35,140 nt of DNA, taken from NCBI RefSeq assembly GCF_003334405.1, contig NZ_QOWM01000027.1. One strand, written 5' to 3'. The notes under the pieces are model-generated. The model was not told where the DNA came from. It did no database searches and saw nothing but the letters and a program-made list of their open reading frames with translations. Source of the stretch: Escherichia coli. Its GTDB lineage: Bacteria; Pseudomonadota; Gammaproteobacteria; Enterobacterales; Enterobacteriaceae. Every line of letters starts with the position of its first letter. The stretch's first letter is position 1. Of this stretch, positions 1-35,140 are shown piece after piece. The position numbers and the translations under genes are program-made.

Positions 1-200
1 CAGATGCCTGATGCGACGCTAACGCGTCTTATCAGGCCTACAAATTCCCGCGCCATCCGTAGGCCGGATAAGGCGTTCACGCCGCATCCGGCAGTCGTGC
101 GCAGATGCCTGATGCGACGCTAACGCGTCTTATCAGACCTACAAATTCTCACGCCATCCGTAGGCCGGATAAGGCGTTCACGCCGCATCCGGCAGTCGTG
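1..200. repeat. REP/BIME array: two tandem ~101-bp units, each with a pair of REP palindromes
   Basis: cagatgcctgatgcgacgc begins at 1 and again at 102; each unit contains gcctgatgcgacgc...cttatcaggcctac and gtaggccggataaggcgttcacgccgcatccggc, matching the E. coli REP consensus. Lies downstream of mhpE. Confidence 0.85.
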
Positions 201-3017: not shown

Positions 3018-3884
3018 TTAAGGGCGTGCGAGGAAATTCAGCACCAGTTGATTGAAAGCGTCGGCATGTTCCCACTGCGCCCAGTGACCACAGTCGCGGA
3101 AGATATGCAGTTCAGAACCGGCAATGCCGGACAGCAGACGCAGACCCGCATCCATCGGCACAAAGCGGTCGTTGCGCCCCCAGACAATCAGGGTTTGCGC
3201 TTTGATTTCCGCCAGACGTGGGCCAAAATCCGGGAACTGTTTCGGATTAGCTTCCAGGCTCTTAACGAAGTTTTCCAGGTGATCGCGGCGCGACAGCATA
3301 TTATTCAGGCGCGCTTCAAACAGGGCGTCGGTCAAATCGCTGGTATCAAAAACGAAGATATCCATCATCAGCTTCAGGTTTTCGATAGTCGGCTGACGAT
3401 AAAGCTGATTCAGTCGCTTAATACCTTCGGTTGGCATCGGCGTAAACAAACTCATGCCGCCCGTACCGCCGCCCATCAGCACCAGTTTGCCGACGCGCTC
3501 CGGCCATTTAAGGGTGAACGCCACAGAACTATGGCCCCCCATCGAGTTGCCCAGCAGGTGGATTTTGGCGATATCCAGTTGATCCACCACGCTTTTCAGG
3601 ATTCGTGCATTAAGATCCGATCGCGAACCACTATTAACGACCGAATCGCTCTTGCCCCAACCCGGACAATCCAGCAGGATCACCCGATAGCCCGCCTCTA
3701 CCAGCGGATCGATATTGCGGCTGAAGTTCGCCCAGCCAGTAGCACCCGGGCCGGAACCATGCAGCAGGACAACGGTTTCGTCGCCTTGTCCGCAGTCATT
3801 AAAATGGATGCGCAGCGTTTTACCCGCTTCTTCTACATTCAGAAAACGGCTGGTGGCGGCTTCGGTTTGTGGCTGATAACTCAT
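3018..3884 (-). CDS. mhpC: 2-hydroxy-6-ketonona-2,4-dienedioate hydrolase (alpha/beta hydrolase)
   Basis: ORF-track entry extends to 3947; recognised protein starts [14 protein letters not shown] (288 aa) at 3884; GNSMGG nucleophile-elbow motif present. An upstream in-frame ATG (MQEKMM) is an alternative start. Confidence 0.88.
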
Positions 3885-13262: not shown

Positions 13263-13874
13263 TTGAACATGCCAATGACCGAAAGAATAAGAGCAGGCAA
13301 GCTATTTACCGATATGTGCGAAGGCTTACCGGAAAAAAGACTTCGTGGGAAAACGTTAATGTATGAGTTTAATCACTCGCATCCATCAGAAGTTGAAAAA
13401 AGAGAAAGCCTGATTAAAGAAATGTTTGCCACGGTAGGGGAAAACGCCTGGGTAGAACCGCCTGTCTATTTCTCTTACGGTTCCAACATCCATATAGGCC
13501 GCAATTTTTATGCAAATTTCAATTTAACCATTGTCGATGACTACACGGTAACAATCGGTGATAACGTACTGATTGCACCCAACGTTACTCTTTCCGTTAC
13601 GGGACACCCTGTACACCATGAATTGAGAAAAAACGGCGAGATGTACTCTTTTCCGATAACGATTGGCAATAACGTCTGGATCGGAAGTCATGTGGTTATT
13701 AATCCAGGCGTCACCATCGGGGATAATTCTGTTATTGGCGCGGGTAGTATCGTCACAAAAGACATTCCACCAAACGTCGTGGCGGCTGGCGTTCCTTGTC
13801 GGGTTATTCGCGAAATAAACGACCGGGATAAGCACTATTATTTCAAAGATTATAAAGTTGAATCGTCAGTTTAA
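13263..13874 (+). CDS. lacA: Galactoside O-acetyltransferase (thiogalactoside transacetylase)
   Basis: TTG start (ttgaacatgccaatgacc) giving MNMPMTERIRAGKLFTDMCEGLPEKRLRGK..., 203 aa, hexapeptide-repeat acyltransferase; ORF-track entry is over-extended to 13212. Confidence 0.93.
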   Translation: MNMPMTERIRAGKLFTDMCEGLPEKRLRGKTLMYEFNHSHPSEVEKRESLIKEMFATVGENAWVEPPVYFSYGSNIHIGRNFYANFNLTIVDDYTVTIGDNVLIAPNVTLSVTGHPVHHELRKNGEMYSFPITIGNNVWIGSHVVINPGVTIGDNSVIGAGSIVTKDIPPNVVAAGVPCRVIREINDRDKHYYFKDYKVESSV

Positions 13875-13886
13875 ATTATAAAAATT

Positions 13887-13950
13887 GCCTGATACGCTGC
13901 GCTTATCAGGCCTACAAGTTCAGCGATCTACATTAGCCGCATCCGGCATG
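13887..13950. repeat. REP pair between convergent lacA and cynX
   Basis: gcctgatacgctgcgcttatcaggcctac ... gccgcatccggcatg. Confidence 0.75.
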
Positions 13951-13976
13951 AACAAAGCGCAGGAACAAGCGTCGCA

Positions 13977-15131
13977 TCATGCCTCTTTGACCCACAGCTG
14001 CGGAAAACGTACTGGTGCAAAACGCAGGGTTATGATCATCAGCCCAACGACGCACAGCGCATGAAATGCCCAGTCCATCAGGTAATTGCCGCTGATACTA
14101 CGCAGCACGCCAGAAAACCACGGGGCAAGCCCGGCGATGATAAAACCGATTCCCTGCATAAACGCCACCAGCTTGCCAGCAATAGCCGGTTGCACAGAGT
14201 GATCGAGCGCCAGCAGCAAACAGAGCGGAAACGCGCCGCCCAGACCTAACCCACACACCATCGCCCACAATACCGGCAATTGCATCGGCAGCCAGATAAA
14301 GCCGCAGAACCCCACCAGTTGTAACACCAGCGCCAGCATTAACAGTTTGCGCCGATCCTGATGGCGAGCCATAGCAGGCATCAGCAAAGCTCCTGCGGCT
14401 TGCCCAAGCGTCATCAATGCCAGTAAGGAACCGCTGTACTGCGCGCTGGCACCAATCTCAATATAGAAAGCGGGTAACCAGGCAATCAGGCTGGCGTAAC
14501 CGCCGTTAATCAGACCGAAGTAAACACCCAGCGTCCACGCGCGGGGAGTGAATACCACGCGAACCGGAGTGGTTGTTGTCTTGTGGGAAGAGGCGACCTC
14601 GCGGGCGCTTTGCCACCACCAGGCAAAGAGCGCAACAACGGCAGGCAGCGCCCACCAGGCGAGTGTTTGATACCAGGTTTCGCTATGTTGAACTAACCAG
14701 GGCGTTATGGCGGCACCAAGCCCACCGCCGCCCATCAGAGCCGCGGACCACAGCCCCATCACCAGTGGCGTGCGCTGCTGAAACCGCCGTTTAATCACCG
14801 AAGGCATCACCGCCTGAATGATGCCGATCCCCACCCCACCAAGCAGTGCGCTGCTAAGCAGCAGCGCACTTTGCGGGTAAAGCTCACGCATCAATGCACC
14901 GACGGCAATCAGCAACAGACTGATGGCGACACTGCGACGTTCGCTGACATGCTGATGAAGCCAGCTTCCGGCCAGCGCCAGCCCGCCCATGGTAACCACC
15001 GGCAGAGCGGTCAACAGGGCAGCCACGCTAAAGCTCATTCCGCTCGCCTGGCGCAATTGCGGTAGCAGTGGCCCGACGGAGGTGAGCAGTGGTCGCATAT
15101 TAAGACCAATCAGCACCAGTACCAGCAGCAT
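13977..15131 (-). CDS. cynX: Cyanate transporter (MFS)
   Basis: Recognised protein starts MLLVLVLIGLNMRPLLTSVGPLLPQLRQASG (384 aa) at 15131; ORF-track entry extends 9 codons further to 15158; multi-TM hydrophobic profile. Confidence 0.88.
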   Translation of the reverse strand: MLLVLVLIGLNMRPLLTSVGPLLPQLRQASGMSFSVAALLTALPVVTMGGLALAGSWLHQHVSERRSVAISLLLIAVGALMRELYPQSALLLSSALLGGVGIGIIQAVMPSVIKRRFQQRTPLVMGLWSAALMGGGGLGAAITPWLVQHSETWYQTLAWWALPAVVALFAWWWQSAREVASSHKTTTTPVRVVFTPRAWTLGVYFGLINGGYASLIAWLPAFYIEIGASAQYSGSLLALMTLGQAAGALLMPAMARHQDRRKLLMLALVLQLVGFCGFIWLPMQLPVLWAMVCGLGLGGAFPLCLLLALDHSVQPAIAGKLVAFMQGIGFIIAGLAPWFSGVLRSISGNYLMDWAFHALCVVGLMIITLRFAPVRFPQLWVKEA

Positions 15132-16432: not shown

Positions 16433-17332
16433 ATGCTCTCTCGACATATCAATTATTTTCTTGCCGTGGCTGAACATGGCAGCTTCACCCGTGCCGCCAG
16501 TGCGTTGCACGTCTCCCAACCTGCGCTTTCCCAGCAGATTCGCCAGTTAGAGGAGAGTTTAGGCGTGCCGCTGTTTGACCGTAGCGGGCGAACGATTCGT
16601 CTCACTGATGCAGGAGAAGTCTGGCGACAGTACGCCAGCCGGGCGTTACAGGAACTGGGGGCGGGTAAACGGGCGATTCATGATGTTGCCGATCTGACGC
16701 GAGGATCGCTGCGTATCGCCGTCACCCCCACCTTTACGAGCTACTTTATCGGCCCCTTAATGGCGGATTTCTATGCGCGCTATCCCAGCATCACGCTCCA
16801 GCTACAGGAAATGTCGCAGGAGAAAATCGAGGATATGCTTTGCCGCGACGAGTTGGACGTTGGGATTGCCTTCGCGCCTGTGCATTCGCCGGAGCTGGAG
16901 GCAATTCCTTTACTGACAGAAAGTTTAGCGTTAGTCGTGGCGCAACATCATCCGCTGGCCGTCCATGAACAGGTGGCGTTGAGTCGCTTGCATGATGAAA
17001 AACTGGTCCTGCTCAGCGCGGAATTTGCCACCAGAGAGCAAATTGACCACTACTGCGAGAAAGCGGGGCTACATCCACAGGTGGTCATTGAGGCGAACTC
17101 AATTAGCGCGGTTCTGGAGCTGATTCGCCGCACTTCCCTTTCCACATTGTTACCAGCAGCGATTGCCACACAACATGACGGGCTTAAAGCTATTTCTCTT
17201 GCCCCGCCACTACTGGAGAGAACGGCGGTTTTGTTGCGGCGGAAAAATAGCTGGCAGACAGCCGCCGCGAAGGCATTTTTGCACATGGCGTTGGATAAAT
17301 GCGCGGTTGTTGGCGGAAATGAATCACGGTAG
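16433..17332 (+). CDS. cynR: LysR-family transcriptional activator of the cyn operon
   Basis: Recognised 299-aa protein starts [41 protein letters not shown] (HTH) at ATG 16433; ORF-track entry is over-extended to 16349; divergent from cynT. Confidence 0.9.
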
Positions 17333-17848
17333 CCGCTGACACAGGTCTGCGGCTGGAATTGCCTGATGCGCTACGCTTATCAGGCCTACGAGTTCAGTGC
17401 TCTACGTAGGCCGGATAAGGCGTTCACGCCGCATCCGGCATAAACTACAGCTGGCAGACAGCCGCTGCGAAGGCATTTTTGCACATGGCGTTGGAGGAAT
17501 GCGCGGTTGTTGGCGGGAATGAATCACGGTAGCCGCTGACACAGATCAGCGGCTGGAATTGCCTGATGCGCTACGCTTATCAGGCCTACGAGTTCAGTGC
17601 TCTACGTAGGCCGGATAAGGCGTTCACGCCGCATCCGGCATAAACTACAGCTGGCAGACAGCCGCTGCGAAGGCATTTTTGCACATGGCGTTGGAGGAAT
17701 GCGCGGTTGTTGGCGGGAATGAATCACGGTAGCCGCTGACACAGATCAGCGGCTGGAATTGCCTGATGCGCTACGCTTATCAGGCCTACGAGTTCAGTGC
17801 TCTACGTAGGCCGGATAAGGCGTTCACGCCGCATCCGGCATAAACTAA
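17249..17848. repeat. Three tandem 200-bp repeat units, each = last ~84 bp of cynR + a small hairpin + a REP pair
   Basis: ctggcagaca at 17251, 17451, 17651 and gaatcacggtagccgctgac at 17321, 17521, 17721 (period exactly 200). Units 2 and 3 are identical; unit 1 (the functional cynR 3' end) differs at ~7 positions. Confidence 0.9.
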
Positions 17849-17868
17849 GCTCGCTGTAACCCAGTCGT

Positions 17869-19152
17869 TCAACGTTTGTAATCGATGGCTTCTGGCTGCT
17901 CCAGATATACGGTGGTTTGTGCCGGTTGTGTGCTGGCAATCACCTTGCCGCCACGTACCGAATAACGTACCGGAACCTGACGGCGCAGCGCATCAAACCC
18001 ATTTTCAGCCGGCAGGATAATCAGGTTGGCGCTGTTTCCGGCGGCAATGCCGTAATCCTGCAAATTCAACGTCCTTGCGCTGTGGTGGGTGATTAAATTC
18101 AGGCCATCGTTAATCTGCCCGTAGCCCATCAACTGGCAAACATGCAGCCCCATATGCAGCACTTGCAGCATATTCGCCGTTCCCAGCGGATACCACGGAT
18201 CGAAGACATCATCGTGACCAAAGCAGACGTTAATGCCGGACTCCAGCATCTCTTTAACGCGCGTGATGCCGCGACGTTTTGGATACGTATCGAAACGTCC
18301 TTGCAGATGAATATTGACCAGCGGGTTGGCGACAAAGTTAATACCGGACATTTTCAGCAAGCGGAACAGGCGTGAGGTATACGCCCCGTTATAGGAGTGC
18401 ATTGCCGTGGTGTGGCTGGCGGTGACTCGCGCGCCCATGCCTTCATGGTGCGCCAGGGCAGCAACTGTTTCGACAAAGCGCGACTGCTCGTCATCGATCT
18501 CATCACAGTGAACGTCGATGAGACGGTCGTATTTTTGCGCCAGGGCGAAGGTTTTATGCAGCGACTCCACGCCGTATTCACGGGTAAATTCAAAATGCGG
18601 AATCGCCCCCACTACATCTGCCCCTAAGCGTAACGCCTCTTCCAGCAACGCTTCACCGTTGGGATACGACAAAATCCCTTCCTGAGGGAAGGCGACGATT
18701 TGCAGATCAATCCACGGCGCGACTTCCTGCTTCACTTCCAGCATTGCTTTCAGCGCAGTTAGCGTTGCATCCGAAACATCGACATGGGTACGCACATGCT
18801 GAATGCCGTTGGCAATCTGCCATTTCAGCGTTTGCCATGCGCGTTGTTTCACATCGTCATGGGTTAATAACGCTTTGCGCTCGGCCCAGCGTTCAATGCC
18901 TTCAAACAGCGTGCCGGACTGATTCCAGTTCGGTTGTCCGGCGGTTTGCGTGGTGTCCAGGTGAATATGTGGCTCCACAAACGGCGGTATAACTAAACCT
19001 TGTTCGGCATCCAGGCTGTTTTCAGTTATGGGCATCACGCCGGATTGCGCATCAATGGCGCTGATTTTTCCGTCCTGCAGATGAATCTGCCACAGCCCCT
19101 CTTCGCCTGGTAACCGGGCGTTAATAATTGTTTGTAAAGCGTTATTCGACAC
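17869..19152 (-). CDS. codA: Cytosine deaminase
   Basis: Recognised 427-aa protein begins (GTG start at 19150..19152) [37 protein letters not shown]...; amidohydrolase HxH motif ([10 protein letters not shown]); ORF-track entry extended 5 codons to an upstream ATG. Confidence 0.9.
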
Positions 19153-20553: not shown

Positions 20554-20632
20554 GTAGGCCTGATAAGACGCGTCAGCGTCGCATCAGGCATCGGCACACA
20601 GTGCCGGATGCACCGCGCGACGCATCCGACAA
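20554..20632. repeat. REP pair between prpE 3' end and the codB promoter
   Basis: gtaggcctgataagacgcgtcagcgtcgcatcaggc ... gccggatgcaccgcgcgacgcatccgac, abutting the prpE stop codon. Confidence 0.8.
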
Positions 20633-20636
20633 TAAC

Positions 20637-22522
20637 CTACTCTTCCATCGCCTGGCGGATCTGATCCAACGACGCAGGATCATCAATGGTCGTCAGATCT
20701 CCAGGATCGCGTCCTTCGCAAATCGCCTGGATCGTGCGGCGCAGCATTTTTCCGGATCGCGTTTTTGGCAATTGCGAGACAAACCAGACGTGCGCCGGGC
20801 GGCCAAAGTTGCCAATCTGGCTGTCCACCAGCGCCATAATCGCCTTCTCTTGCGAGTGCGCCACATCACGATCTTCCAGACTGTCGCTCTCTTTCGGAAT
20901 GACAAACGCCACCGCCACCTGCCCTTTCAGCGCATCTTTCACCCCAACCACCGCCACTTCGGCAACGCCCGGATGGCTGGAGATACTCTCTTCAATCTCG
21001 CGCGTCCCCAGCCGATGCCCGGCAACGTTAATTACATCGTCAGTGCGCCCGAGAATAAAGTGATAACCGTCAGCGTCACGGATGCCCCAGTCAAAGGTGG
21101 CGTACACCGGGCGGGAAAACAGCGACCAGTAAGTCTTCACAAAGCGGCCGTCGTCGCCCCAGATGGTCTGAATACACCCCGGCGGCAGCGGCCCTTCCAC
21201 CACCAGCATCCCTTTCTCGTTGACGCCACACGGTTCGCCGGTGACTTCATTAAGCAACTGCACGTTATAGCCATACATCGGCACACCGGGGCTTCCCAGA
21301 CGCGTCGGCCTGTCGTCCAGACCGCGAGCAATCGCCATAATCGGCCAGCCGGATTCGGTCTGCCAGTAGTTGTCGATGACCGGCACATCCAGCGTATTGC
21401 TCACCCAACTGGCGGTCGGCTCGTCCAGCGGTTCTCCAGCCAGATAGAGCACTTCCAGCGACGAGAGATCGTGTTTGCGAATTTCAGCGGTAGGGAATTT
21501 TTTCAGCACGCGAATGGCGGTCGGCGCTGAGAACATCCGGCTAACCTGATATTTCTCGACGATTTTCCACCACACGCCGCAGTCCGGCCAGGTCGGCAAT
21601 CCTTCGTAAACGATAGTCGCCATCCCCGCCAGCAGCGGCGCGTAAACGATATACGAATGCCCCACCACCCAGCCGATATCCGATGCGCAAAAGAACACGC
21701 TGCCCGCTTTGCCGCCAAAAATGGTGTCCATCGAGGTCGCCAGCGCCACCGCATATCCGCCGACGTCACGCTGCACGCCTTTAGGTTTGCCGGTCGTGCC
21801 GGAAGTGTAGAGAATGCAGGAGGTTTCGTTGGATTCCAGCCACGCCACCGGTACCCGCGCGCCGATGTGTTGATGGCGCAACGACGCGAAATCGACATCC
21901 CGCCCGCTGACGCGCGCCATTTTCGCCAGCCCGCGATCCACCAGCAAAACATGGCGTGGCTGGTGCTGCGCCTGACTTATCGCATCGTCGAGCAATTTTT
22001 ATAGGGAATGATTTTGCCACCGCGCGCTCCGGCATCAGCCGAGACAATCAGCACCGGTTTAGCGTCATCAATTCGCGCCGCCACGCTGTGCGAGGCAAAT
22101 CCACCAAACACCACCGAGTGAATAGCGCCAATGCGCGCGCAGGCCAGCAGAGTAATATGCGCTTCGGCAATCATCGGCATATACACCAGCACCCGATCGC
22201 CGCGCTGCACACCCAATGAACGCAACATTGAGGCCACCGCGTTCACTTCGTCATGCAGCTGACGAAAGGTAAAGGTGCGCTCTTCTTCTGTTTCCGAAGA
22301 GACGGCAATCAGCGCCAGCGCCTCTGGCTGTTTCTCCAGCCAGCGGTCGATGGCGTTGTGGCACAAGTTGGTTCGGCCTTCACAAAACCAACGGGCAAAC
22401 GGCGGATTGCTGTGATCGAGCGTTTGCGTAAAGGGCGTCTGCCAGTCAATACGCCGGGCCTGCTCGGCCCAGAACTGCTCCGGTTCGTTAATCGAACGCT
22501 GATAAAATTCGCTAAAAGACAT
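20637..22522 (-). pseudogene. prpE: Propionyl-CoA synthetase gene interrupted by a frameshift (two ORFs: 21977..22522 and 20637..21995)
   Basis: N-terminal ORF MSFSEFYQRSINEPEQFWAEQARR... ends ...GGKIIPYKNCSTMR-stop; the downstream ORF continues LDDAISQAQHQPRHVLLVDRG... with the AMP-binding motif YTSGTTGKPKG. The frames differ by one nucleotide at an A5 run (T5 at 21996..22000 on +). Confidence 0.8.
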
Positions 22523-22561: not shown

Positions 22562-24013
22562 TTAAATGACGTACAGGTCGAGATACTCATTGACCGGCAT
22601 CTGTTCCAGGCGAGCTCTGTCGAGAGAAACCTCCAGAATGCGCTGCTGTTGGCGAGTCGGGAACTGGCGCGCGAGATTGATTTTGAATTTATCGACCAGT
22701 TTCGGAATACCATCCTGACGGCGGCGAGCATGACCAATGGGGTACTCCACCACCACTTCTTCAAATCGTGTGCCGTCGGTGAACTCAAGGGTAATGGCAT
22801 TGGCGATGGCGCGTTTTTCCGGGTCGTGGTAGTCAGCGGTAAATGCCGGATCTTCAAAGCAATTGATCTTCTCGCGCAGGGCGTCAATGCGTTTATCTTG
22901 CGCAACGTTGTCCTCGTAATCTGCCGCCGTTAAGCGCCCGAATAGCAGCGGGATCGCCACCATGTACTGAATGCAGTGATCGCGGTCTGCCGGGTTATTG
23001 AGCGGCCCTTTTTTGTCGATGATGCGAATACAGGCTTCGTGGGTGCGAATGGTCACTTTTTCGATATCCGCCGCCGTTTTGCCTGCTGCCTGCATCTGTT
23101 CATAGAGCGTCATCGCTGCTTCAACTGCCGTCTGGGAGTGGAACTCCGCCGGGAAGGAGATTTTGAACAGCACATTTTCCATAACGTAGGAACCGTACGG
23201 GCGCTGGAAGCGGAACGATTCACCTTTAAAGGAGACGTCGTAGAAGCCCCACACCGGCGCAGTCAGGGCTGACGGGTAACCCATTTCGCCCGTTTTCGCC
23301 ATCAGTGCCAGACGTACCGCGCGGGAAGTGGCATCGCCTGCCGCCCAGGATTTACGCGTGCCGGTGTTCGGCGCATGGCGATAGGTGCGCAGCGACTGAC
23401 CGTCCACCCACGCCAGCGAAACGGCGTTGAGAATTTCCTCGCGGGTCAGGCCGAGCATTTCGGCGACCACGGCGGTGGAAGCCACTTTCACTAACAGAAC
23501 GTGGTCGAGGCCGACGCGGTTAAAGGAGTTTTCCAGCGCGATGCAGCCCTGAATTTCATGGGCTTTGATCATTGCGGTCAGCACCTGTTTCATGGTCAAC
23601 GGCGCTTTGCCGCTGGCGACCGCGTTGCGCGAAAGCCAGTCCGCCGTTGCCAGAATGCCGCCGAGGTTGTCGGAAGGATGGCCCCACTCCGCCGCCAGCC
23701 AGGTATCGTTGAAATCGAGCCAGCGGATCATCGCGCCGATGTTAAATGCCGCCTGGACGGGGTCGAGCTGGAACTGAGTTCCGGGGACGCGCACGCCGTT
23801 GGGTACGACGGTGCCGGGAACAATTGGCCCCAGCAGTTTTTTACAGGCCGGGTATTCGAGAGCTTCCAGACCGCAGCCGAGCGTGTCGAGCAGGCAGTAA
23901 TGTGCGGTGTCGTAGGCCACTTTAGAGCTGATTTCGTAGTTCATGACGTAATCGACGATATCAACGATTTCACGATCAAATTCCGGGCGGATGTTGTTGA
24001 TTTGAGCTGACAT
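22562..24013 (-). CDS. prpD: 2-methylcitrate dehydratase
   Basis: 483-aa [62 protein letters not shown]... Confidence 0.95.
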
Positions 24014-25216: not shown

Positions 25217-25257
25217 GTTGTCCTCGTCATTGTTATCATTTGTAGGGTCGAGATTGT

Positions 25258-25536
25258 TGTCGGATGCGACGCTATGCGTCTTATCCGACCTACAGTTCAG
25301 TTCACCCCGTAGGCCTGATAAGTCGCGTCAGCGGCGCATCAGGCATCGGTTGTCGGATGCGACGCTATGCGTCTTATCCGACCTACAGTTCAGTGCACCC
25401 CGTAGGCCTGATAAGTCACGTCAGCGGCGCATCAGGCATCGGTTGTCGGATGCGACGCCATCCGTCTTATCCGACCTACAGTTCAGTGCACCTCGTAGGC
25501 CTGATAAGTCGCGTCAGCGACGCATCAGGCATCGGC
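25258..25536. repeat. REP/BIME array: three tandem 93-bp units in the prpC-prpB spacer
   Basis: tgtcggatgcgacgc at 25258, 25351, 25444; each unit carries two REP palindromes (ggatgcgacgctatgcgtcttatccgacctac / gtaggcctgataagtcgcgtcagcggcgcatcaggc); units differ at a few positions. Confidence 0.9.
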
Positions 25537-25562
25537 TGTCGAATACAATCAACGGGCGTTTT

Positions 25563-34970: not shown

Positions 34971-35020
34971 GTTGTTATGTCCGCTACAGAGGGTGATGGG
35001 GTTATGACCAACGCCAGACT

Positions 35021-35140
35021 GCCTGATGCGCTACGCTTATCAGGCCTACAATTCTCGCGCCACTCGTAGGCCGGATAAGGCGTTCACGCCGCATCCGGCA
35101 ATGGTGACAAATGCCTGATGCGCTACGCTTATCAGGCCTA
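35021..35140. repeat. REP elements upstream of yahI (run off the window end)
   Basis: gcctgatgcgctacgcttatcaggcctac ... gtaggccggataaggcgttcacgccgcatccggc ... gcctgatgcgctacgcttatcaggccta. Confidence 0.85.

Follow-up and report, generated by a model that had tools for sequence, protein, structure and literature searches.

The spacer between the convergent genes cynR and codA was analyzed in a 35,140-nucleotide stretch of Escherichia coli DNA (contig NZ_QOWM01000027.1, assembly GCF_003334405.1; hereafter, the window), where it is filled by three 200-bp units. Each unit starts with the final 84 nt of cynR and continues with a stem-loop that overlaps the stop codon of the gene and with two repetitive extragenic palindromes (REPs) placed head to head, a bacterial interspersed mosaic element (BIME). 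This array is probably a selectively neutral tandem segmental duplication of variable copy number, in effect a 200-bp minisatellite, whose units change by unequal exchange or slippage. The duplicated state of K-12 is already in the literature, in which the codA–cynR region of E. coli is named as a case of a BIME unit having taken up sequence from a gene next to it (Ton-Hoang et al., 2012; Nucleic Acids Res; PMC3333891). The window shares with that K-12 arrangement the locus, the 200-bp unit, and the junction, and differs from it in having three units rather than two, the additional one being a further copy of the second unit. Literature searches found no paper describing the three-unit allele or the series of one-, two-, and three-unit alleles reported here, and gave nothing useful beyond the 2012 study.

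Structure of the cynR–codA Array

Analysis with Tandem Repeats Finder identified a single tandem array in the cynR–codA spacer of the window, at 17249–17851, with a period of 200, 3.0 copies, 98% matches, 0% indels, and a score of 1157. The three units lie head-to-tail from 17249 to 17848 with no spacer between them, as the abutting direct copies of a minisatellite do. The cynR–codA spacer itself extends from 17333 to 17868 (536 bp); the stop codon of cynR (17330–17332) is located inside the first unit (U1), and the last 84 nt of the gene (17249–17332) form the start of that unit. A sequence-only reading of the window, made without database searches, had described three head-to-tail 200-bp units, each with a cynR end, a hairpin, and two inverted REPs, and this description was upheld by the repeat search, the comparison of units, and the inverted repeats detected. 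The REP at 17361–17389 of U1 is taken here to be of the y type and that at 17406–17439 of the z type, judged by the consensus sequences.

Direct comparison of the units revealed six differences between U1 and the second unit (U2), at unit positions 18, 48, 49, 69, 97, and 100, and seven differing positions between U1 and the third unit (U3), in line with the figure of about seven given for unit 1 in the sequence-only reading. The same reading had called units 2 and 3 identical to the base; this is correct for 199 of the 200 positions, but not for the boundary base at position 200, their sole difference, where the internal junction has C and the end of the array has A. Between U1 and U2, the six substitutions delimit blocks of identity of 17, 29, 19, 27, 2, and 99 bp.

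Distribution among E. coli Genomes

In E. coli K-12 MG1655, codA ends at 357454 and cynR at 357791, and the spacer between them measures 336 bp, in agreement with the length of about 336 bp given in the sequence-only reading. Alignment showed that MG1655 has two units, not three, and that removing one U2 from the window array gives the MG1655 sequence to the base; the window thus carries one extra unit relative to K-12, as had been proposed.

To survey the locus more widely, a 1,301-bp query across the array was compared with 5,426 complete E. coli genomes, and the ranked matches were examined in even steps, with each row of the census standing for about 93 records; the figures therefore describe a sample and not a full count. 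Three-unit arrays occupied 3 rows at 100% identity (approximately 186–279 records), and two-unit arrays, K-12 derivatives included, occupied 13 rows, or about a fifth of the genomes. Single-unit spacers of 132–146 bp were found in 11 rows, and 19 rows showed a 39-bp spacer lacking the REP pair, as in O104:H4; cynR was absent in a further 11. A synthetic four-unit query gave no colinear match in the 5,426 genomes, its best matches being three-unit arrays split in two pieces, and this result together with the census classes therefore indicates a REP-unit copy number of 1 to 3. The sequence-only reading had suggested an amplification hotspot; the instability of single units described below bears out part of that suggestion, but the term itself is overstated, since none of the 5,426 genomes has four or more units.

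The array of the three-unit genome M217 is identical in sequence to that of the window, and the arrays of seven sampled three-unit genomes from varied hosts and countries are likewise identical. Within clonal series, namely ESY001–003, NDM2–6, and five time-series isolates of Ec-050, the three-unit state is consistent. This state is common to a sizeable clinical and environmental lineage, and is not unique to the source isolate. A 25-kb query from the window, run for clonality with evenly spread rows, produced a ranking driven by insertion sequence (IS) insertions and REP-array length differences.

Evidence for Recurrent Gain and Loss of Single Units

One-, two-, and three-unit alleles all occur on the K-12-type flanking haplotype, and two alleles predicted from the three-unit sequence were sought directly. 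The predicted two-unit allele, which is the M217 sequence with one unit removed, including a lineage-specific single-nucleotide polymorphism (SNP) in prpD, gave at least 25 perfect colinear matches over 6,550 bp. A predicted, synthetic one-unit allele of U1 type, in which the only unit consists of U1 positions 1–199 followed by A (the “DK” allele, after the codons discussed below), gave at least 20 perfect matches over 900 bp, including enterotoxigenic E. coli (ETEC) H10407. The DK allele is not the pre-duplication ancestor, because U2 would then need reversion at three sites; from its base states, it is read as a product of contraction.

Close relatives differing by exactly one unit were also found. 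All eight three-unit genomes examined at window position 23604 (the seven sampled genomes and MB07152) carry a derived A at this prpD site, and many two-unit genomes, often from the same studies, have the same derived A and otherwise identical flanks. AR216.2b and AR202.2, both from dogs in Zurich, have three and two units, respectively; their gene coordinates are identical over 3.69 Mb up to cynR, no SNP separates them in approximately 38 kb of flanking sequence, and their coordinates are offset by exactly 200 bp past the array. Similarly, OV2 (NZ_CP195020.1), a laboratory strain of the K-12 lineage that possesses both MG1655-private SNPs of the region, has one cynR–codA unit versus two in MG1655.

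The window itself combines three units with the ancestral G at 23604 and with private changes of its own. In the complete-genome collection, no other genome has three units together with G at this site; MB07152 was considered as a second three-unit genome on the window haplotype and was rejected, as it has the derived prpD allele. The private SNP at 18466 in combination with three units was also found in no other genome of the collection, the best matches having one mismatch. The predicted alleles, the near-clonal pairs, and the G at prpD in the window therefore indicate repeated one-unit changes rather than a single inherited event. Whole-unit copy number thus differs among near-identical genomes, to which assembly error may contribute, and the view of the array as recombination-prone is borne out by one-, two-, and three-unit alleles of the expected sequence on the same flanking haplotype and in near-clonal pairs.

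Formation of the Third Unit

Homologous exchange and slippage ordinarily act on direct repeats of this kind, 200 bp long and sharing a perfect block of 99 bp. Such an event predicts a middle unit composed of U2(1..x) followed by U1(x+1..200). The observed middle unit is of U2 type at all six diagnostic sites, yet has the junction base C of U1, that is, U2(1–100) followed by U1(101–200), so that x lies between 100 and 199. This range would place the crossover inside the 99-bp REP block, which is the longest block of identity between U1 and U2, the others being 29 bp or shorter. The sequences of the one-, two-, and three-unit alleles all match, exactly, those expected from exchange in this longest perfect block.

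The history of the locus may be described in three steps. The ancestral spacer contained a single REP pair, the state seen in Ec-U10 and 2273-PO3. One old illegitimate event then duplicated a 200-bp segment that starts within cynR and stops 9 nt after the z-type REP, to give a functional cynR end with its BIME followed by a fossil cynR end with its BIME, which is the K-12 state. From that point on, the two direct repeats, which are 97% identical, would allow unequal homologous exchange or replication slippage in the 99-bp block to move whole units. A change from two units to three would yield U1, a U2 ending in the junction base C, and a U2 ending in A, as in the window; a change from three to two would restore the exact K-12 allele, and a change from two to one would leave a single U1-type unit ending in A.

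Judged by its lack of internal differences from U2, compared with six between U1 and U2, the third unit is recent. This agrees with the earlier proposal that the extra unit is a recent copy of unit 2, with the proviso that “very recent” is to be understood as relative, the three-unit state being lineage-wide.

The Founding Duplication and the Fossil cynR Ends

The single-unit alleles of Ec-U10 and 2273-PO3 have C18, GG48–49, G69, G97, and T100, and because of these states, U1 is derived at positions 48, 49, and 69 and U2 at positions 18, 97, and 100. The approximately three derived changes of each copy are the same in every two- or three-unit array examined, and the two-unit array is also present where the flanks diverge from those of the window by over 1%, namely in S19-651, 2013C-4991, and 1297KP. 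The first duplication is therefore old and single, since the derived changes are shared even in these diverged backgrounds.

The founding junction reads ...CATAAACTAC|AGCTGGCAG... (...AAACTAC|AGCTGGCAG...). The left flank at the corresponding breakpoint is ...GGAAAAAT|AGCTGGCAG..., and the right flank is ...CATAAACTAC|GCTCGCT... in S19-651, O157:H7, and 2273-PO3; the K-12-type right flank has a derived A (...ACTAA|GCTCG...). On this alignment of flanks, the founding junction is blunt, with C joined to A at a point 9 nt from the z-type REP on its far side, and the flank comparison revealed no microhomology at the breakpoint. An orphan C at the junction, suggested by the K-12 flank, was dropped as a candidate, the ancestral C being present in S19-651, O157, and 2273-PO3.

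In every strain with two or three units, the working CynR protein ends in ...LDKC...; the ending ...LEEC... is encoded by the fossil copies and by each of the ancestral alleles with a single unit (17294–17299 versus 17494–17499). The DK form arose by an adjacent GG-to-TA double substitution in the working cynR after the duplication, and the one-unit contraction alleles retain it. The nonfunctional copy is accordingly the one that preserves the ancestral CynR C-terminus, the functional copy having moved on. Annotation of the copied cynR ends by the Prokaryotic Genome Annotation Pipeline (PGAP) is inconsistent, with 0, 1, or 2 incomplete “hypothetical protein” pseudogenes labeled per genome.

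Alternative Explanations

Several points weigh against the interpretation of the array as a neutral minisatellite changing by exchange or slippage. RecA-dependent exchange, RecA-independent slippage, and transposase-mediated copying yield the same product, and the sequence cannot tell them apart. The interpretation does not account for the origin of the first duplication, whose junction is blunt and free of microhomology. Because U2 and U3 are identical, some of the differences between sister assemblies (two versus three units, or one versus two) could reflect assembly collapse or expansion, and OV2 is one unit short in the REP array between prpC and prpB as well. The census is an evenly spaced sample of ranked matches, with about 93 records per row, and neutrality is inferred. 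As for the strains concerned, the shortness of OV2 in both arrays relative to MG1655 could be due to change during its laboratory history or to assembly collapse of both repeats, and a literature search for the sequencing methods of AR216.2b and AR202.2 gave nothing useful.

An explanation that we regard as improbable attributes the copying of units to the REP-associated tyrosine transposase (TnpA_REP, or RayT), which would bind a REP, cleave single-stranded DNA at a distance, and amplify the BIME with a captured gene fragment. TnpA_REP has been proposed as the producer of gene-capturing BIME units, and codA–cynR is cited as an example of that model (PMC3333891). A REP bearing a 5′ GTAG and an imperfectly paired stem, 82–93% complementary, is present in all units, as expected of a binding site, and rayT is intact in the three-unit genome AR216.2b (498 nt, WP_000006255.1); the gene lies approximately 95–110 kb from cynR in AR216.2b and MG1655 and would fall outside the 35-kb window. 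In vitro, TnpA_REP cuts at distances of up to more than 400 nt from a BIME, with a strict need for a C|T dinucleotide (PMC3333891). With AAAAAT|AGCTGG as the ancestral left flank and AAACTAC|GCTCGC as the right one, however, the sole possible breakpoint of the array is ...AAACTAC|AGCTGG..., which reads C|A in the top strand and T|G in the bottom one and does not follow the C|T rule. In addition, the third unit needs no transposase, homology-driven exchange being simpler, and by the authors' own statement there is no in vivo assay or demonstrated in vivo activity for RayT (PMC3333891). The stronger proposal that the 200-bp unit is a natural in vivo product and continuing substrate of the domesticated transposase RayT, a BIME with a captured gene 3′ end whose copying and excision go on today in a clinical lineage that has been successful, seems less likely again; if it were true, the series of one, two, and three units would be a ready-made reporter of RayT activity in vivo, which has so far been missing in the field.

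It is also very unlikely that the third unit of this window is an assembly artefact, that is, a two-unit array expanded by an assembler or polisher. Copy number does disagree between sister assemblies, and U2 and U3 are identical, so that short reads cannot count them directly; the consensus of the window further shows signs of imperfection, in that prpE is split by the loss of one base from a T-run and about nine SNPs are private. Against this, the identical three-unit array is present in approximately 186–279 complete genomes that were assembled independently in many laboratories, including consistent clonal series, so that the allele exists in nature and is no one-off error of this assembly. 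A homopolymer error, moreover, would suggest long reads, which easily span a 600-bp array.

Hardly any credence is given to an adaptive expansion, selected in the clinical lineage, in which extra hairpins and REPs alter cynR or codA termination or mRNA stability, or in which the fossil fragments are expressed: REPs stabilize upstream mRNA, the three-unit allele is common in isolates whose strain names suggest carbapenemase-carrying clinical strains, and a compensatory stem pair change in O104:H4 suggests a functional hairpin, but the new unit is internal and leaves the proximal 3′ regions of cynR and codA unchanged, the fossil cynR fragments lack a start and the N-terminus, the same clade contains abundant two-unit members whose flanks are identical, and clonal hitch-hiking accounts for the frequency pattern. 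A search for promoter-like sites in the array gave none, and terminator-like matches numbered only two (minus strand, 17249–17266), not above the shuffled expectation of 1.4, which also counts against adaptation. As the extra unit lies mid-array, at least the first 200 nt downstream of both cynR and codA are unchanged, and no effect on either gene would therefore be expected. Nothing points to a function for the triplication, and the neutral tandem duplication remains the preferred interpretation.

Features of the Locus

The features of the array and of the genes bordering it are listed in Table 1.

Table 1. Coordinates of the array, its components, and the adjoining genes in the window.
Feature	Position	Strand	Remarks
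cynR coding sequence	16433..17332	+	LysR-type regulator of the cyn operon; open reading frame (ORF) list and PGAP annotation of the identical M217 sequence (900-nt cynR)
Repeat unit 1 (U1)	17249..17448	+	Functional cynR 3′ end, stem-loop, and REP pair; from direct unit comparison
Repeat unit 2 (U2)	17449..17648	+	Middle copy, extra relative to MG1655; U2-type at 6/6 diagnostic sites; position 200 is C
Repeat unit 3 (U3)	17649..17848	+	Equivalent of the second unit of MG1655; same as U2 except for last base A
99-bp block	17349..17447	.	Unit positions 101–199; perfect identity in all units; putative site of the exchange or slippage adding, and able to remove, a unit
Fossil cynR 3′ end	17449..17532	+	28 codons; keeps the pre-duplication “EE” state of single-unit strains
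Second fossil cynR 3′ end	17649..17732	+	Identical to 17449–17532
Stem-loop over the cynR stop codon, U1 version	17331..17354	+	One T:T stem mismatch; predicted −15.9 kcal/mol
Stem-loop, U2 version	17531..17554	+	Perfect 9-bp stem; predicted −17.2 kcal/mol; third copy at 17731–17754
BIME of unit 1	17361..17439	.	REP 17361–17389 (CTAC end on +) and REP 17406–17439 (5′ GTAG on +), head to head
BIME of unit 2	17561..17639	.	Identical to BIME of unit 1
BIME of unit 3	17761..17839	.	Identical to BIME of unit 1
codA	17869..19152	-	Cytosine deaminase; convergent with cynR; ORF list and PGAP; stop codon 20 nt past the array

The stem-loop has the form AGCCGCTGA-CACAGA-TCAGCGGCT; its 9-bp stem is perfect in U2 and U3, and a single mismatch interrupts it in U1. 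The U1 version is not a canonical intrinsic terminator, because no T-run follows it. In the O104:H4 allele (about 1431–1455 of the compared locus), which lacks the REP pair, both bases of a G-C pair in the stem have changed to give A-U, and the predicted energy is −18.5 kcal/mol. The stem-loop is probably a real RNA element, a conserved 3′-end structure of cynR that belongs to this gene and not to the triplication.

A REP is defined here as an imperfect palindrome of 30–40 nt with a conserved GTAG tetranucleotide 5′ of the stem foot (PMC3333891). Both palindromes of the unit have this form, on the plus strand as GTAGGCCGGATAAGGCGTTCACGCCGCATCCGGC (17406–17439) and on the minus strand as GTAGGCCTGATAAGCGTAGCGCATCAGGC (the complement of 17361–17389), and they are arranged head to head across a 16-nt linker, GAGTTCAGTGCTCTAC, with inverted-repeat arms I1–I6. 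As expected of dispersed elements, a query containing the array matched 8–30 places per E. coli genome. A strong fold was predicted for the BIME of unit 1 (z = −4.5), and comparison with Rfam gave matches to the REP-derived naRNA4 below threshold only (39 bits versus a gathering score of 59.5).

Other REP Arrays and Sequence Differences in the Window

The prpC–prpB spacer contains a canonical REP-pair array at 25256–25541, with a period of 93, 3.1 copies, and 95% matches; MG1655, M217, and MB07152 have one more unit here than the window (a 439-bp versus a 346-bp spacer). The short form is also found in K-12 GM4792 and OV2, and the spacer of S19-651 is only 44 bp long. In the codB–prpE spacer, at about 20554–20630, the window is without approximately 94 bp, equivalent to one REP-pair unit, that are present in MG1655 and M217; this short form is common to MB07152, UMNF18, and several ETEC genomes. 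Large deletions in the right flank, suggested by gaps in a MAFFT alignment, were discarded when pairwise BLAST reduced them to one-unit differences in two REP arrays other than that of cynR–codA. Further REP-pair arrays are located at the two ends of the window and are cut by them, one at 1–201 in the mhpT–mhpE spacer (period of about 101) and the other at 35020–35140 (period of about 93); the former differs by one unit from both MG1655 and M217, and M217 shows several staggered self-matches at the loci of both. The codB–prpE spacer of the diverged two-unit genome S19-651 harbors an insertion of IS621, of the IS110 family, at 13571–14551 of the compared locus; REP-rich spacers are a known type of target for IS110-family elements such as IS621.

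At position 21995, prpE (minus strand) has a 1-bp deletion in a T-run, TTTTT compared with TTTTTT in every compared genome, which divides the gene into frames of 453 and 187 codons; either prpE is truly a pseudogene here, or the deletion is a homopolymer error of sequencing. Private single-base differences were identified at 3327, 6977, 6981, 18466, 23339, 25302, 28774, 30622, and 32648, all nine by comparison with MB07152 and four of them in the sampled genomes as well. No perfect match to the window was found among the complete genomes, even over 1.6 kb around the array, indicating either that the source strain is outside the RefSeq complete set or that the consensus is imperfect.

Relation to Known Repeat Systems and Implications

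The tandem arrays of BIME-2 type in E. coli are likewise intergenic, head-to-tail, and REP-pair-bearing, with copy numbers that vary among strains, but their units of approximately 90–100 bp consist of REPs and linkers only, whereas the cynR–codA unit measures 200 bp and is more than half non-REP, comprising 84 nt of coding sequence, the separate stem-loop, and spacer. Canonical examples of the BIME-2 type within the window are the arrays at 1–201 (period 101) and 25256–25541 (period 93). What is repeated at cynR–codA is a segment in which one BIME happens to lie, and the array is a segmental duplication rather than an array of BIME units.

REPs are also involved in larger rearrangements, including the REP-mediated lac duplications on F′128 and the tandem duplications in the his region of Salmonella, which Shyamala, Schneider, and Ames reportedly described in 1990 as having join points in REPs. 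In such chromosomal duplications, REPs supply the homology for unequal exchange, just as the 99-bp REP half of the unit is the putative crossover site in the cynR–codA array; they join different REP loci, however, and extend over kilobases to hundreds of kilobases, whereas the present repeat is a local one of 200 bp with a founding junction outside the REP. Slipped misalignment and unequal sister-chromatid exchange between direct repeats are said to have been studied by Lovett and colleagues. The array most resembles a minisatellite, or variable number tandem repeat, in that whole units are gained and lost, the newest copies are identical, and alleles interconvert between close relatives. Compared with such repeats, it shows nothing mechanistically distinctive, and its only oddity is the gene 3′ end within the unit, through which fossil CynR C-termini are kept.

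The triplication is ordinary and of little biological importance, and its use lies in typing and in the quality control of assemblies. As a cheap marker scored by the size of a polymerase chain reaction product, in steps of approximately 200 bp, the locus separates sub-lineages of K-12-like phylogroup A strains, among which the three-unit group is common, with strain names that suggest ST167-type clinical clones. With two identical units, over which sister assemblies disagree, it is also a trap for assembly and variant calling. More generally, the array illustrates how an intergenic REP pair, through a single old illegitimate duplication, becomes a copy-number polymorphism that perpetuates itself.

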